NCBI GenBank assembly: GCA_036559465.1 | Contig: DATBTC010000063.1 | Span: forward strand, 2,497 to 66,496 | DNA length: 64,000 nucleotides | Direction of reading: 5' to 3' | Origin: Xanthobacteraceae bacterium | Lineage (GTDB): Bacteria; Pseudomonadota; Alphaproteobacteria; Rhizobiales; Xanthobacteraceae | Shown here: piece after piece, positions 1 through 59,254 of the stretch | Layout of the letters: each line of letters starts with the position of its first letter | How positions within the stretch are numbered: the stretch's first letter is position 1 | Notes under the pieces: model-generated | What the model was told of the DNA's origin: nothing | The model's database searches: none | What the model saw: the letters and a program-made list of their open reading frames with translations, nothing else | Program-made: the position numbers and the translations under genes

Positions 1-2139
<2,139 letters not shown>

Positions 2140-54467: not shown

Positions 54468-55469
54468 TCAGGCCGCGGCCTTCTCCATATAGCGATAAGC
54501 GTCGGCCAAGAGAGCGCGGCCCAATGTGGTCGGGCGCGCATGCGCGGCAAAGGTCGCATGTCCTTCGAAGAACGCTTTGCGCGCGGCGCCACGGCATTCT
54601 TGCGCGACTGCTTGCTCCTCCGGATTGAGCAGGCTCGAGGCGAGCAGCCGATCGAGCGCGTAGTACATCCGTGCCGATACGAAAGTCGCGTGTGTGATGC
54701 CGTCCATCGGCCGTGGGTCGATGCGCAGCGGCGAGCGGTAACGCTCCTCGTTCGGATTATCGACCAGGGGTTCGCCGAGCGCGAGGCCGTAGAGATGCGA
54801 ATGTGCGCCTTCATGGGCAATCGCTTCGGCCATAGCGACCGCGGTCTTATGCTTGTCTGCATTGAGGAAGAGCGAGCCCCAAGCATAGAACGACGTCGCG
54901 CCATCGAGACTCATAGCCGCCTCGGAGCCATCGCATACCAGAACGATCTCTTTAACCAATGCGCGGATTTCGGCCGAGACCTCGGGCGCGCCACGGTCCA
55001 GCAATTCGAACGCGCGCTCCAGCAGGCGTGAAGCTCGATCGAAAATCGCCGTTTCTGGACGCTCCAGCACCAGTTTTGAAGCCGGGTCGGCATTGACCGA
55101 GCGCGAATAGCGGTCCGTTTCACCGGCGGTGAAGGTCTCGTCCGCATACTTTCTCAGCCGGAAGGCTGGCGCGGCGACCGGCGCTCCAGCGAGAACTTCG
55201 AGCGAGTGCGTCAAAACCTCAAGATTACCGCTGCGCGCCGCCGCGAGGCAGTCGTAATAAAGCAGAAACACGTCGGGTCGCACCGCCGGTGAGGATTCAA
55301 TCTCGGCAATGCGCGAGGTAAGCGCCGCCTCGTCCATGCTTACATGGCCGCGGCTTGCCCGAACGATTTCGCCTAGAGCTTCGGCGAGCCTATGCGCGAT
55401 GTCCCGATAAATCCGAGCACCGCGGTCGCCATCGGGCCGAAAGCTGGTTTCCGTCGTCAACAAGGACAC
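54468..55469 (-). CDS. HExxH-motif protein, resembling the aKG-HExxH-type peptide-modifying (beta-hydroxylase) family
   Basis: 333 aa, GTG start 54 nt downstream of the repeat-peptide gene on the same strand. AIAHEGAHSHLY (HExxH at 54801-54815), followed by ERYRSPLRIDPRPMDGITHATF. This matches my recollection of the HExxH...Y.(S)PWR.DPRP..G..H pattern of the TIGRFAMs mod_HExxH family. No HMM was run. Confidence 0.5.
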   Translation of the reverse strand: MSLLTTETSFRPDGDRGARIYRDIAHRLAEALGEIVRASRGHVSMDEAALTSRIAEIESSPAVRPDVFLLYYDCLAAARSGNLEVLTHSLEVLAGAPVAAPAFRLRKYADETFTAGETDRYSRSVNADPASKLVLERPETAIFDRASRLLERAFELLDRGAPEVSAEIRALVKEIVLVCDGSEAAMSLDGATSFYAWGSLFLNADKHKTAVAMAEAIAHEGAHSHLYGLALGEPLVDNPNEERYRSPLRIDPRPMDGITHATFVSARMYYALDRLLASSLLNPEEQAVAQECRGAARKAFFEGHATFAAHARPTTLGRALLADAYRYMEKAAA

Positions 55470-55523
55470 GAGATCACTCGAACTCTACAGATACCGCGGC
55501 AAGCGATCTCTCGTCCCGTACGC

Positions 55524-55892
55524 CTACTTAGGAGCGTCCTGCGAGGACCTCGGTGCGACTTTTTCGCCGATCGCGAAACCGTTCGTGCGGAGGCCGAGCA
55601 GTTTCGTCTCGTCGAGCTTAAGCGCCGCTTCGGGAGTCCCTTCCTCCTTGGTACCCACGGCATATCCGTTGGTGCGCAAGCCGAGCAGCTTCGTTTCGTC
55701 GAGCCTGAGTGCCGCTTCGCGGGGGCTGTCCTTGCCGCCCACGGCATATCCGTTGGTGCGCAAGCCCAGCAGCCTTGCTTCGTCGAGTTCGATCCTCAGC
55801 TGCTTTGGCGTCGTGGGGGTTTTAAGGCCGACCGCGTAGCCATTGGTGCGCAGGCCCAGCAATTTGCTCTCGTCGAGCTTGATAACTGACAT
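55524..55892 (-). CDS. 122-aa tandem-repeat protein, candidate multi-core peptide precursor
   Basis: ATG..TAG ORF. Four copies of LDE[SAT][KR]LLGLRTNG[YF]A[VI]G at residues 6-22, 36-52, 64-80 and 93-109, separated by 11-13-aa Pro/Thr/Lys/Glu-rich linkers. Differences between copies are mostly synonymous in this frame. No signal peptide. Confidence 0.7.
   Translation of the reverse strand: MSVIKLDESKLLGLRTNGYAVGLKTPTTPKQLRIELDEARLLGLRTNGYAVGGKDSPREAALRLDETKLLGLRTNGYAVGTKEEGTPEAALKLDETKLLGLRTNGFAIGEKVAPRSSQDAPK
55566..55877 (-). repeat. four tandem ~84-90-nt coding repeats
   Basis: Spacing between copies is 30, 28 and 29 codons. The conserved 51-nt block reads CTC GAC GAR nnn AAR/AGG YTG CTS GGC YTS CGC ACS AAY GGN TWY GCS RTS GGY in all four copies. 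Confidence 0.9.
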
Positions 55893-56034
55893 TCACTCAG
55901 CCCCCGGCAGAAACCCTGGGACGGGCCGATTGCTGACCCTTCCCCCAAGGGCATGCTAGCAACGGCGTTGGGCCGCTTCAACCGGGTGGCTAGGTCGCGC
56001 TCGGCGCCCGGCTGCGGAAACGCATAGGTTTCGC

Positions 56035-57030
56035 ATGATCGTTTTTCTTGTGACGCCGCCCCACTATTACACTTTAAAGGCTGTGGAAAAGGCGCTGCCG
56101 CGCGTCGTTCGGGTCATCGATTACCACGAGTTCTTCGCGGCCGACCGCCTGCTGGGCGGCACTTATATCTTCTGCGATCTGGAGCGGCTTTCGGAGCACG
56201 AGCTGCGAATTGCGGCGGAGGCCTATCGACAATTGGCGGCGCAAGCCGGAGTCCGGGCGCTCAATGATCCCGCGCGCGCGCTCACTCGCTACGCACTTCT
56301 GCGCGCGCTGTTCGAAGCCGGGATCAACGATTTCGACGTCTATCGCGCGGACGCTTTACCCAAGCCGCGGCGCTTTCCCGTATTTGTTCGCTGGGAGCCA
56401 GGCCACGACAAGCCGTCCGAACTCCTGCACGACCAGACAGCGCTGGACGCGGCCTTGGCGGAGCTCGTGGTCAAGGGTGAGCCGTTGCGGGGCATGCTCG
56501 TCACCGAGTATGCGGCGGAGCCGGTGATTCCCGGCGTGTTCCGCAGGCATGCCACGTTCCGGATCGCGGACGAGTTTCAGCTATTCGCCCCTTCATCGGA
56601 ACGCGATTGGCGCGTCAAATATGGCGAACGCGGACTCGTGAGCGAGGACATCTATCTCGACGATGAACGCGCCATGCAGGAGAACCGTTTCGGAGAAACT
56701 TTGCGGCGCACGTTCGAGATCGCCGGCGTGGAGTATGGGCGGGCCGATTTCGGTCTGGTCGGCGGCAAACTGCAAATCTACGAGATCAACACCAACCCCA
56801 GTGTTGGAGTTCCGGCACCGCACGACTCGCCCGCGCGAACTCGCGCGCTTGCCCGCTGCTGGTCCTGGTATTTGGAGAAAATCGCCGCGCTGGATACGGC
56901 CACCTGCGCCCGGAAAATCAAGATCGATTCGCCGCTGCTGTCGCTCTACCGAAGCGCATTGACAACGAAATATCGCACCCTATTCGGTTGGCGCTTGCCC
57001 AGAGGCGACCGGCTGATACGCCGGCCCTGA
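56035..57030 (+). CDS. ATP-grasp fold ligase (substrate unknown)
   Basis: 331 aa, divergent from the repeat-peptide gene across a 142-nt spacer. LNDPARALTRYALLRALFEAGI, FPVFVRWEPGH, MLVTEYA and YGRADFGLVGGKLQIYEINTNP follow the order of ATP-grasp motifs. The last contains the E-x-N Mg/ATP motif at about 56782-56790. Confidence 0.6.
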   Translation: MIVFLVTPPHYYTLKAVEKALPRVVRVIDYHEFFAADRLLGGTYIFCDLERLSEHELRIAAEAYRQLAAQAGVRALNDPARALTRYALLRALFEAGINDFDVYRADALPKPRRFPVFVRWEPGHDKPSELLHDQTALDAALAELVVKGEPLRGMLVTEYAAEPVIPGVFRRHATFRIADEFQLFAPSSERDWRVKYGERGLVSEDIYLDDERAMQENRFGETLRRTFEIAGVEYGRADFGLVGGKLQIYEINTNPSVGVPAPHDSPARTRALARCWSWYLEKIAALDTATCARKIKIDSPLLSLYRSALTTKYRTLFGWRLPRGDRLIRRP

Positions 57031-57219: not shown

Positions 57220-58332
57220 ATGCTTGTTCACACTCTTCGCGCCGCGCTCGCGGCCGCGTTCTTCTGCTTTATCGCCGCGCCGGCGGCATTCGCCGGAAGG
57301 ACCGTGGTCGAGGTCGCTTTCGTGCTCGACACCACCGGCTCCATGGGGCCGCTGATCGAAGGCGCCAAGCGCAAGATCTGGTCGATAGCGACCTCGATCG
57401 TCGACGCCAATCCCGAGGCTGAGGTTCGCATGGCGCTCGTCGCCTATCGCGATATCGGCGACGAGTACGTGACCAGGAAGTTCGACCTCACCACCGACAT
57501 CCAGGATCTCTACGGCGAGCTGCTCGCGTTCCGCGCCCGCGGCGGCGGCGACTGGCCCGAGAGCGTGAACGAGGCGCTCGATGTGGCGGTGACCAAGCTC
57601 TCCTGGTCGAAGGGCCGCGAAATCTGCCGGATCATCTTCTTGGTCGGCGACGCCCCGCCGCACATGAACTACGCGCAGGACCGCAAATACCCCGAAGTCG
57701 TCGCCGACGCGCACCGGCGCGGCATTATCGTCAACGCCGTGCAGGCCGGCGACGCGCGCGACACCGAGCGGGTGTGGCGCGAGATCGCCCAGCGCGCCAA
57801 CGGCGAGTACTTGCGCATTCCGCAGCACGGCGCGGTCGTGGTGATCGAGACGCCCTATGACCGCAAGATCCACGGGTTGCAGATCGAGCTCAACAAGACC
57901 GTCATTCCCTACGGCAAGCGCGCAGAACAGCGCGCGGTGCAGGACAAGCTGGAGCGCTCGGTGGCGGCACCCGCGCCCGCGGCTTCCGACATGGCGGGTT
58001 ATCTGAGCAAGAAGGCGGGCGCGCGCGAGCTGGTAACCGGCGGTGGCGATCTGGTCGGCGACATGATCGCCGGCCGCACACGGCTCGATTCCGTGCCCGA
58101 GACCGACCTGCCCGAAACGTTGCGGCCGCTGGCGCCGGCCGAGCGCAAGGCGCTGATCGAGACCCAGACCGCAGCGCGCAAAGCGCTTGATGAACGCATG
58201 TCAGAACTCGTCAGGCAACGCGACGCCCATATCGCCGCTGAGCGCGCCAAGCAGCCGCAGGCGAAGGACTCCTTCGACCGCGTGGTCGAGGACACGCTGC
58301 GGAAGCAGGTCACGCGCCCGGCCACGAACTGA
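57220..58332 (+). CDS. secreted von Willebrand factor type A (VWA) domain protein
   Basis: 370 aa. Sec signal peptide MLVHTLRAALAAAFFCFIAAPAAFA|G. MIDAS-like VLDTTGSM, then LVAYRD and FLVGDAPPH. The C-terminal ~120 aa is charged and probably helical. Confidence 0.8.
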   Translation: MLVHTLRAALAAAFFCFIAAPAAFAGRTVVEVAFVLDTTGSMGPLIEGAKRKIWSIATSIVDANPEAEVRMALVAYRDIGDEYVTRKFDLTTDIQDLYGELLAFRARGGGDWPESVNEALDVAVTKLSWSKGREICRIIFLVGDAPPHMNYAQDRKYPEVVADAHRRGIIVNAVQAGDARDTERVWREIAQRANGEYLRIPQHGAVVVIETPYDRKIHGLQIELNKTVIPYGKRAEQRAVQDKLERSVAAPAPAASDMAGYLSKKAGARELVTGGGDLVGDMIAGRTRLDSVPETDLPETLRPLAPAERKALIETQTAARKALDERMSELVRQRDAHIAAERAKQPQAKDSFDRVVEDTLRKQVTRPATN

Positions 58333-58338
58333 GAATTG

Positions 58339-58367
58339 GACCCTCTCCCCAAAGCGGGGAGAGGGTC
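58339..58367. repeat. REP-like palindromic element, copy 1
   Basis: GACCCTCTCCCC-aaagc-GGGGAGAGGGTC, a perfect 12-bp stem 7 nt after the VWA gene stop. Same arm sequence as the element at 60581-60608. Confidence 0.75.
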
Positions 58368-58423
58368 TCTTGCTCCCGGTACGCCGATCGCGGACATTCC
58401 CGCCAAGAACGGGGGCAGGGATA

Positions 58424-59254
58424 ATGGCGATCGATTACGAAGTCGAATACAACAACCGCGCGCGGGTGCCGGAGCATCCAGCGATCCTGGCGCGCTGGCA
58501 GCGCGATGCGGCCGCTTTTCGTGCCTCACACAAGAACAGCGAACTCGGCCTTGCTTACGGCAAGAGCGAGCGCCAGAGGATCGATCTGTTCTGGCCGGAC
58601 GCCGTGCGCAACACACGGATCGCGCTCTTCATACATGGTGGCTACTGGCGCGCGCTTGAGCGCGAAAGCTTCAGCCATCTGGCCGCCGGCGCCAACGCCC
58701 GCGGACTCGCCTTCGCGCTTGCAGGCTATGATCTATGCCCCACGGTCATGATCAGCGAGATCATCGAGCAAGTGCGCGCCGCGGCGGCTTTTCTTGGCCG
58801 CCGCCATGGCGGCCCGATCGTCGCCTGCGGACATTCCGCTGGCGGGCATCTAGCTGGTTGCTTGGTCGGCACCGATTGGAAGAAGCGCGGCGCCGATCTG
58901 CCTGCTGACCTCACGCCTGCCGGCCTTTCGATCTCGGGTCTGTTTGACCTCACGCCGCTTTTGCAGACCAGCATGAACGCTGACCTCAAGCTCGATGTCG
59001 CCGAGATACAACGCACCTCGCCGATTTTCTGGCCCGTGCCGCCTGCCGCCCACGCCTTCGATGCCTGGGTCGGGGCCGACGAGAGTCCGGAGTTCCTGCG
59101 CCAGAGCCGGATCATCGCCGATGCGTGGCAGCAGAAGGGCATAGCGACCCGCTATGAAGCGGTCACCGGCGCCAATCATTTCACCGTGCTCGATCCATTG
59201 GCCAAGCCCGATAGCCCGCTCACGGCGCGGCTGGTCGAGCTGGCCCGGATCTGA
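58424..59254 (+). CDS. alpha/beta hydrolase (arylformamidase / esterase-lipase family)
   Basis: ORF 58187..59254 trimmed to MAIDYEVEYNNRARVPEHP, 276 aa. Oxyanion-hole HGGYW and nucleophile elbow GHSAGGH. Confidence 0.8.
   Translation: MAIDYEVEYNNRARVPEHPAILARWQRDAAAFRASHKNSELGLAYGKSERQRIDLFWPDAVRNTRIALFIHGGYWRALERESFSHLAAGANARGLAFALAGYDLCPTVMISEIIEQVRAAAAFLGRRHGGPIVACGHSAGGHLAGCLVGTDWKKRGADLPADLTPAGLSISGLFDLTPLLQTSMNADLKLDVAEIQRTSPIFWPVPPAAHAFDAWVGADESPEFLRQSRIIADAWQQKGIATRYEAVTGANHFTVLDPLAKPDSPLTARLVELARI

Follow-up and report, generated by a model that had tools for sequence, protein, structure and literature searches.

Positions 54468-57030 of a 64,000-nt stretch of a Xanthobacteraceae metagenome-assembled genome (MAG), hereafter the window, carry three genes which we read, with a probability of about 0.7, as a member of a widespread and undescribed three-gene peptide-modification cassette that resembles those of RiPPs (peptides made on ribosomes and modified after translation), with the 122-aa product as its substrate. 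The list of open reading frames (ORFs) placed all three genes where an earlier sequence-only reading of this DNA (the original prediction) had put them, with gaps of 54 nt and 142 nt. The precursor peptide gene (122 aa, four tandem modules; 55524-55892, minus strand) is supported by the ORF list, its repeats and its GC content by codon position. A spacer of 54 nt (55470-55523, minus strand by the ORF coordinates) separates its stop from the start of the gene for an HExxH-type peptide hydroxylase of the alpha-ketoglutarate-dependent (aKG-HExxH) type (333 aa, GTG start; 54468-55469, minus strand), recognised by its match to TIGR04267. The third gene, for an ATP-grasp ligase of a clade that has no model (331 aa; 56035-57030, plus strand), was assigned from its fold and family profile and is transcribed divergently. 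Because they lie on the same strand, the precursor and hydroxylase genes probably share one transcript; the order of peptide then HExxH gene was also found in L086-L091 and in most loci. From the arrangement, the 142-nt divergent intergenic region (55893-56034) is presumed to hold the promoters of both transcription units, and a scan for the sigma-70 consensus gave no match within it.

The cassette is not confined to this genome; it is widespread. More than 730 relatives of the ligase were found in the protein collection, with a maximum identity of about 52%, and 247 were found in species-representative genomes across at least seven phyla. We fetched 80 loci of ligase relatives, over which the following neighbourhood counts were taken. 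A homologue of the window's HExxH protein lay no more than 1.7 kb from the ligase in 57 of these 80 loci, and adjacency was 40/52 when at least 2.5 kb of flank was available on both sides. A count of 77/80 obtained from ORF clustering was discarded, being inflated by antisense ORFs. In the common layout the ligase and HExxH genes are divergent with a spacer of 300-600 bp; in five loci they are co-directional and abut or overlap. The hosts include Alphaproteobacteria of several orders, Gammaproteobacteria including Burkholderiaceae, Verrucomicrobiota, Myxococcota, Acidobacteriota, Gemmatimonadota, planctomycete MAGs (Planctomycetales, Tepidisphaeraceae), a Flavobacteriaceae MAG and Candidatus Aquilonibacter. 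No third conserved gene family was present in more than 17 of the 80 loci, and a cluster of ABC ATPases seen in 17 loci was judged generic and not taken as part of the cassette.

In the spacer between the ligase and HExxH genes there are usually between one and five small ORFs, on the same strand as the HExxH gene. The N-terminal motif common to their products is (I/V)-x-L-D-(W/R)-S-(K/R)-L-L-G-F-(D)-Q; 10-30 variable residues and then one or more (K)-(V/I/L)-G-x-K-(P) units follow it, so that downstream of the docking motif Gly-x-Lys is conserved amid otherwise variable sequence. At least 90% of the aligned peptides have the Leu, Asp, Leu-Leu-Gly and Lys, and one Gly is invariant; the C-termini are not conserved and have no Glu. 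Motif-bearing ORFs are rare elsewhere in the loci, with 3-4 chance matches in about 1 Mb. No Pfam or NCBIfam model covers these peptides. A profile search returned about 120 called proteins at E<2e-4, all of 44-105 aa, none of which carried any name beyond "hypothetical protein". Most precursors have one module and the window's four are near the maximum, with two to five modules in other precursors (P0121-P0123, L074, P0242). The ligases nearest to the window's (48-50% identity) pair with compact modules, two or three per peptide, in L006, L009, L012, L008 and L078; in this compact clade a Ser or Thr lies 1-2 residues ahead of the first Gly of the site. Several loci have more than one precursor gene in tandem (L036, L048, L054, L057, L067 and L017/L018), the last two, from Verrucomicrobia MAGs, having four to six each (L017 585-1623 and L018 338-2679, both on the minus strand).

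Linkage was also seen when the search started from the peptide. Three called precursors (P0185, P0173 and P0145) each lie between a ligase gene and an HExxH gene; on the short contig of a fourth (P0242), the HExxH gene lies downstream and a cut gene fragment occupies the contig end where the ligase would be expected. Metagenomes were scanned with the motif D[WR][SA][KR]LLGFD, taken from a narrower alignment as the broad peptide alignment was too variable for this purpose, and 41 loci were confirmed. Loci were counted as evaluable with at least 700 bp on one side (n=38), many contigs being too short to judge absence. At least one enzyme lay beside the peptide in 30 of the 38; six loci had flanks of 1.5 kb or more each way, and five of them carried both enzymes. 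From the look-ups and these counts, the peptides are strongly, though not absolutely, linked to the enzymes. The original prediction had proposed this co-occurrence as a check: peptide, hydroxylase and ligase occur together across phyla, and widespread enzyme-free peptides were not seen.

The linkage has exceptions in both directions. In two loci the peptide and ligase are followed by an ORF of about 390 aa in place of the HExxH gene (peptides at L101 314-547 and L112 993-1223), which resembles a membrane protein by eye only. In L124, and in L121 within the available flank, there is an HExxH gene with no ligase nearby (the L121 peptide being the scan's own match). Therefore the pairing of ligase and HExxH gene is not obligatory. 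At L130 (4974-5237 and 6215-7225) the peptide adjoins a sulfotransferase-like ORF, recognised by eye only from a KSGTTW motif, and at P0179 a gene for a canonical Asp/Asn beta-hydroxylase (PF05118) lies 1 kb away.

The 122-aa ORF of the window is a real gene under protein-level constraint, given the substitution pattern of its repeats and its gene-like GC content by codon position. The latter (0.62/0.46/0.76 at positions 1/2/3) resembles that of the window's real genes and not that of the overlapping alternative frames; an identical 122-aa peptide gene in the same synteny was found on 10 metagenome contigs. The original prediction saw four copies of a 17-aa block in the product. The four copies stand, the unit being 21 aa: (I/L)xLDEx(K/R)LLGLRTNG(Y/F)A(V/I)GxK. 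Module 1 (IKLDESKLLGLRTNGYAVGLK, residues 4-24, 55821-55883) aligns to the family docking motif and GxK site, and modules 2 (IELDEARLLGLRTNGYAVGGK, residues 34-54, 55731-55793), 3 (LRLDETKLLGLRTNGYAVGTK, residues 62-82, 55647-55709) and 4 (LKLDETKLLGLRTNGFAIGEK, residues 91-111, 55560-55622), likewise on the minus strand, were placed by repeat and family alignment. Together they make up 84 of the 122 residues, with linkers of 7-9 residues between them, and TRF found a period of 84 nt in the gene. Pairwise identity among modules is 67-81% for protein and 65-83% for DNA, with 2-12 synonymous and 4-7 non-synonymous codon differences per pair; in five of the six pairs the synonymous changes are at least as many as the non-synonymous. 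Hence the repeats are old and maintained at the protein level.

The window block aligns residue for residue with the peptide family, minus the long variable linker: its first 10 residues are the docking motif, here I/L-x-L-D-x-x-K/R-L-L-G, and its last four are the GxK unit. Each module accordingly has a hydrophobic-Gly-x-Lys site 14-17 residues after the Leu-Asp of the docking motif, and the spacing from Asp to Lys is exactly 17 residues in all four modules and also in L006, L009 and L012. Since every repeat aligns, in compact form, with the docking motif and a single GxK site, the window peptide reads as a multi-module precursor and not as a single leader with several cores. What had been proposed as a new core, on account of an unrecognised motif, is thus a family-wide docking (leader-type) motif fused to a short site, and the plesiocin-like multi-core arrangement gives way to a multi-module one with the docking motif in each repeat. 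A word-indexed homology search with the 122-aa peptide gave no match, nor did a look-up in exact-sequence clusters; these two types of search may systematically miss short repetitive proteins. An exhaustive phmmer search recovered one true relative, P0242, and a further candidate, P0241, was rejected as a spurious repeat protein.

The HExxH protein belongs, as judged by profile and motif matches, to the aKG-HExxH peptide beta-hydroxylase family (TIGR04267/IPR026337), as the original prediction had supposed. Its score on NCBIfam TIGR04267 was 97.1 bits (E=1.2e-27), where the cutoff is 40, over protein residues 150-323 and model positions 1-176 of 177. HEGAH, at residues 219-223, forms the HExxH motif. 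In a phmmer search of the PDB the protein matched ChlH (8s5f, E=0.002), with which both the HExxH and the SPxRxDxRPxxGxxHAxFV motifs align (window segment SPLRIDPRPMDGITHATFV). Public gene calls give a protein of 289 aa (L001 8556-9425). The GTG start at 55469, giving 333 aa, appears more likely than the 289-aa start because alignments with homologues begin within residues 1-10 of the longer protein and so include the 44 residues upstream of the shorter start. A single-sequence AlphaFold2 model of the hydroxylase had a mean predicted local distance difference test score (pLDDT) of 41.9, too poor for fold comparison. Characterised members of the family act on ribosomal peptides: ChlBH hydroxylates Asp and His, PflC/PosC hydroxylate Gln and have oxidative backbone cleavage as a second activity, and the nitrilobacillin enzyme hydroxylates Pro (PMC12636437, PMC13060819).

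The 331-aa protein, annotated by NCBI as hypothetical, had no Pfam or NCBIfam match at E<=1. Among 25 family members (the window protein and 24 homologues) none matched a graspetide or ATP-grasp Pfam model, and the sole related Pfam match was one weak hit to Dala_Dala_lig_C. The profile searches suggested by the original prediction thus identified the hydroxylase, through TIGR04267, and gave no match for the ligase in the ATP-grasp or graspetide maturase models of Pfam and NCBIfam. A profile of the ligase family does match the Mg/ATP region of the Ddl C-terminus (E=5e-4), and GRADFG...YEINTNP, invariant in 25 homologues, aligns to the Ddl Mg/ATP motif. Residues of ATP-grasp catalytic type are invariant, the window protein included (K195, E158/E162, R236, D238, E250, N252). 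The AlphaFold2 model of the protein (pLDDT 90.5, predicted template-modelling score 0.87) gave 286 Foldseek matches in the PDB at E<=0.001. The best were RimK, Ddl and LysX/ArgX (E about 1e-9, TM-score about 0.5, 12-18% identity); the best 50 comprised these and synapsin, and none of the 50 is described as a graspetide maturase. Taken together, the missing model matches, the Ddl profile match, the modelled fold and the invariant residues identify the protein as an ATP-grasp ligase, as originally predicted, of a clade beyond every curated model. Nor is it orthologous to a ligase of primary metabolism.

How the cassette would work can be proposed from these family assignments. The docking motif would recruit the enzymes and, as every repeat has its own, the four sites could be processed independently. 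The aKG-HExxH enzyme, with Fe(II) and alpha-ketoglutarate, is predicted to hydroxylate a side-chain carbon in or near the Gly-x-Lys site. The ATP-grasp enzyme would activate a carboxylate as an acyl-phosphate and then join it either to the invariant Lys, as an amide, or to the new hydroxyl, as an ester. A candidate acyl donor in the window peptide is the module's own Asp, 17 residues before the Lys, which would give four lactam rings, and the constant distance of 17 residues within the compact clade speaks for such an Asp-Lys link in this peptide. Data from the whole family favour an acyl donor other than a conserved peptide side chain: an intramolecular Asp-Lys link is unlikely to be family-wide because there is no conserved acid in the core and Asn takes the place of Asp in L017/L018. 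The outcome would be a single small protein with as many as four equivalent modified sites. Release and export, if any, would rely on genes elsewhere, since the cassette encodes no protease or exporter.

The known members of the hydroxylase family (ChlBH/ChlH, BpmH, PflC/PosC and the nitrilobacillin proline hydroxylase) share TIGR04267/IPR026337 with the window enzyme. Like ChlH, the latter has an HExxH motif with downstream His-containing motifs, and the known family also adjoins a small precursor gene. The window hydroxylase is remote from ChlH, however (only about E=0.002), and its partner is an ATP-grasp enzyme, whereas the partners of known members are radical S-adenosylmethionine, MNIO or asparagine-synthetase-like enzymes. 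Its target peptide family also differs, known members acting on Asp, His, Gln or Pro. Graspetides of the plesiocin/thuringinin type likewise place an ATP-grasp enzyme beside a tandem-repeat precursor with a leader-type motif, but they have one N-terminal leader followed by several cores where the window peptide has a docking motif in every repeat; unlike them, the cassette has no conserved acid/hydroxyl pair in its core and a ligase outside the graspetide models. The nearest precedent for a ligase together with a hydroxylase is the SmaO/SmaX cluster of group 18 graspetides (PMC12186529), which likewise combines an ATP-grasp enzyme with an iron/ketoglutarate peptide hydroxylase. SmaO is described as a typical Fe(II)/2-oxoglutarate enzyme and the HExxH motif is unmentioned in the text of that paper; the group 18 cluster differs further in that a transporter-peptidase cleaves its double-glycine leader, in its HD-domain partner and in Gly-rich cores that contain Asp (PMC12186529).

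RimK and LysX/ArgX with LysW, the best structural matches, are ATP-grasps that act on a protein or peptide substrate and not on two small molecules. They extend or load a C-terminal Glu, and the C-termini of the cassette peptides differ. PGM1 of pheganomycin biosynthesis is an ATP-grasp enzyme that joins a non-ribosomal acid to the amine of a ribosomal peptide, a precedent for ligation without cyclisation, although it acts on the peptide N-terminus and has no hydroxylase partner.

In the 174-family graspetide census of Makarova et al. 2022, six motifs of the family had no occurrences in the 187 supplementary files, and HExxH is unmentioned in the text or the table of associated families. A literature search, covering mostly non-subscription literature so that an earlier description is possible, found no paper that pairs an ATP-grasp enzyme with aKG-HExxH or describes the motifs, and searches on the family accessions or DUF6065 found, within the same scope, no description of the cassette. 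The ligase clade and precursor family appear new; the superfamilies from which the RiPP-like cassette is built are known.

Two general features of RiPP systems were found here, namely a small precursor gene beside modifying enzymes that is co-conserved with them across taxa, and a precursor in which the recognition region is conserved and another region varies more. A dedicated leader protease and/or exporter, common in RiPP systems and not obligatory, was not. As the original prediction had noted for the window, no protease, exporter or immunity gene is present at the locus, and none is conserved across the related loci. This, and several other observations, weigh against our interpretation. 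Twelve of the 52 full-flank ATP-grasp loci have no HExxH gene, eight of the 38 evaluable peptide-first contigs have neither enzyme within their short flanks, and neither enzyme was found at the long locus L130 or at the P0179 locus. The docking motif of all L017/L018 precursors is LNWGKLLGF, with Asn in place of the near-invariant Asp, and across the peptide family no acidic residue is conserved in the target region. The closest fold matches of the ligase, RimK and LysX, target protein C-termini, which are unconserved in these peptides, and the chemistry of the cassette as a whole is deduced.

Three other explanations were weighed against the RiPP-like cassette. The original prediction proposed a graspetide, in which the ATP-grasp enzyme closes Asp/Glu-to-Thr/Lys rings in each repeat and the HExxH enzyme adds a beta-hydroxyl to the Asp, or to the Asn of Asn-Gly. 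The constant 17-residue spacing in every module of the window peptide and its closest relatives would suit such rings, as would the Ser/Thr just before the site in the compact clade; SmaO in group 18 is a precedent for a cluster with an Asp hydroxylase (PMC12186529), and Asp hydroxylation by aKG-HExxH enzymes is documented (PMC12636437). The ligase, on the other hand, is recognised by none of the graspetide maturase models of NCBIfam or Pfam, its best 50 fold matches lie with RimK, Ddl, LysX/ArgX and synapsin, and the family falls outside the graspetide census, in whose files its motifs are missing. Among the donors and acceptors originally proposed, the Asp and the Lys of Gly-x-Lys are conserved, the Asp being Asn in some members such as L017 and L018, whereas the Thr, Glu and Asn-Gly of the window repeat are unconserved in the family. 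The implied 18-residue ring is moreover large compared with described graspetides. We therefore regard a graspetide as unlikely, and the ligase as probably not of graspetide type.

A reading in which the small protein is no natural-product precursor is still less probable: it could be modified and retained within the cell, or could serve the two enzymes as a partner or regulator, and their main substrate may differ. The missing export, protease and immunity genes, here and as conserved neighbours elsewhere, would fit such a role, as would the few peptide genes found apart from the enzymes and the ordinary housekeeping genes that surround the locus. A conserved motif with a variable tail, tandem precursor genes and tight linkage to two enzymes are, however, typical of precursors, and characterised aKG-HExxH enzymes act on ribosomal peptides (PMC12636437, PMC13060819). 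Finally, the 122-aa ORF could be a chance frame in GC-rich DNA with a non-coding repeat, given that long spurious ORFs are common in the window and that the search for homologous proteins with the peptide returned nothing. This is effectively refuted by the codon-position GC and the excess or parity of synonymous changes described above, and by protein-level homologues at the same position in dozens of distant genomes. A narrower version of the RiPP-like reading is that the cassette defines a new RiPP class, in which an uncurated ATP-grasp clade and an aKG-HExxH hydroxylase would act jointly on Gly-x-Lys by non-graspetide chemistry, with docking motif and target repeated four times as a unit. 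We consider this possible but hold it only tentatively, at somewhat less than even odds.

Some ligase loci may belong to a sister system. In eight of the 12 full-flank loci that have no HExxH gene, a DUF6065 protein (PF19541, E=1e-92) stands in its place (for example L050 9302-10135, minus strand). In four of these the ligase and DUF6065 genes are separated by a small ORF of 3-5 tandem (Y/F)GPxPPP modules (L050 8982-9296, L052 4274-4585, L082 8976-9167 and L084 9028-9411, all on the minus strand), and this motif was found in no locus without DUF6065. These loci may thus pair the ligase with another partner enzyme and another repeat peptide. DUF6065 had no sequence match in the PDB; the DUF6065 ORF of L030 (640 aa) has an extra C-terminal region that is cupin/JmjC-like by eye only.

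A different precursor architecture was seen in L099, whose contig is too short to reveal enzymes. Three tandem ORFs of about 130 aa each (1-393, 394-792 and 813-1111, plus strand) carry, fused C-terminally to the docking motif and an AKIGxKP site, a self-cleaving chaperone domain of the Peptidase_S74 type (Pfam E=4.8e-8), which begins at SDVRLK directly after the site. Self-cleavage would free a peptide with its C-terminus just past GxKP, where most family members end.

Downstream of the window cassette lie genes for a secreted-type VWA-domain protein (57220-58332) and an alpha/beta hydrolase of the hormone-sensitive-lipase family (58187-59254; NCBIfam NF058665, 257 bits, below the cutoff of 320). 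Both were rejected as cassette parts, not being conserved beside the cassette in other genomes. PADLOC found no defence-system matches. GC at third codon positions is 0.69-0.76 in the three cassette genes versus 0.84-0.87 in the adjacent regA and VWA genes, a mild hint that the cassette was acquired separately.

RiPP enzymes have been a productive source of new peptide chemistry and biocatalysts. The pair described here joins a recently recognised oxygenase family to an ATP-grasp clade that has no curated model, and acts, on our reading, upon a substrate family that Pfam and NCBIfam do not recognise and the graspetide census does not contain. If the cassette does represent a new class, its products could include a Lys side chain acylated with a free acid, or an installed hydroxyl esterified in an ATP-dependent reaction, and the DUF6065 sister system would suggest a general oxygenase-plus-ligase logic. 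The system is small, with three genes, a 122-aa substrate and four equivalent sites, and is directly testable. Because the cassette is found in hundreds of genomes, from Alphaproteobacteria to Gemmatimonadota, one characterisation would annotate many loci.

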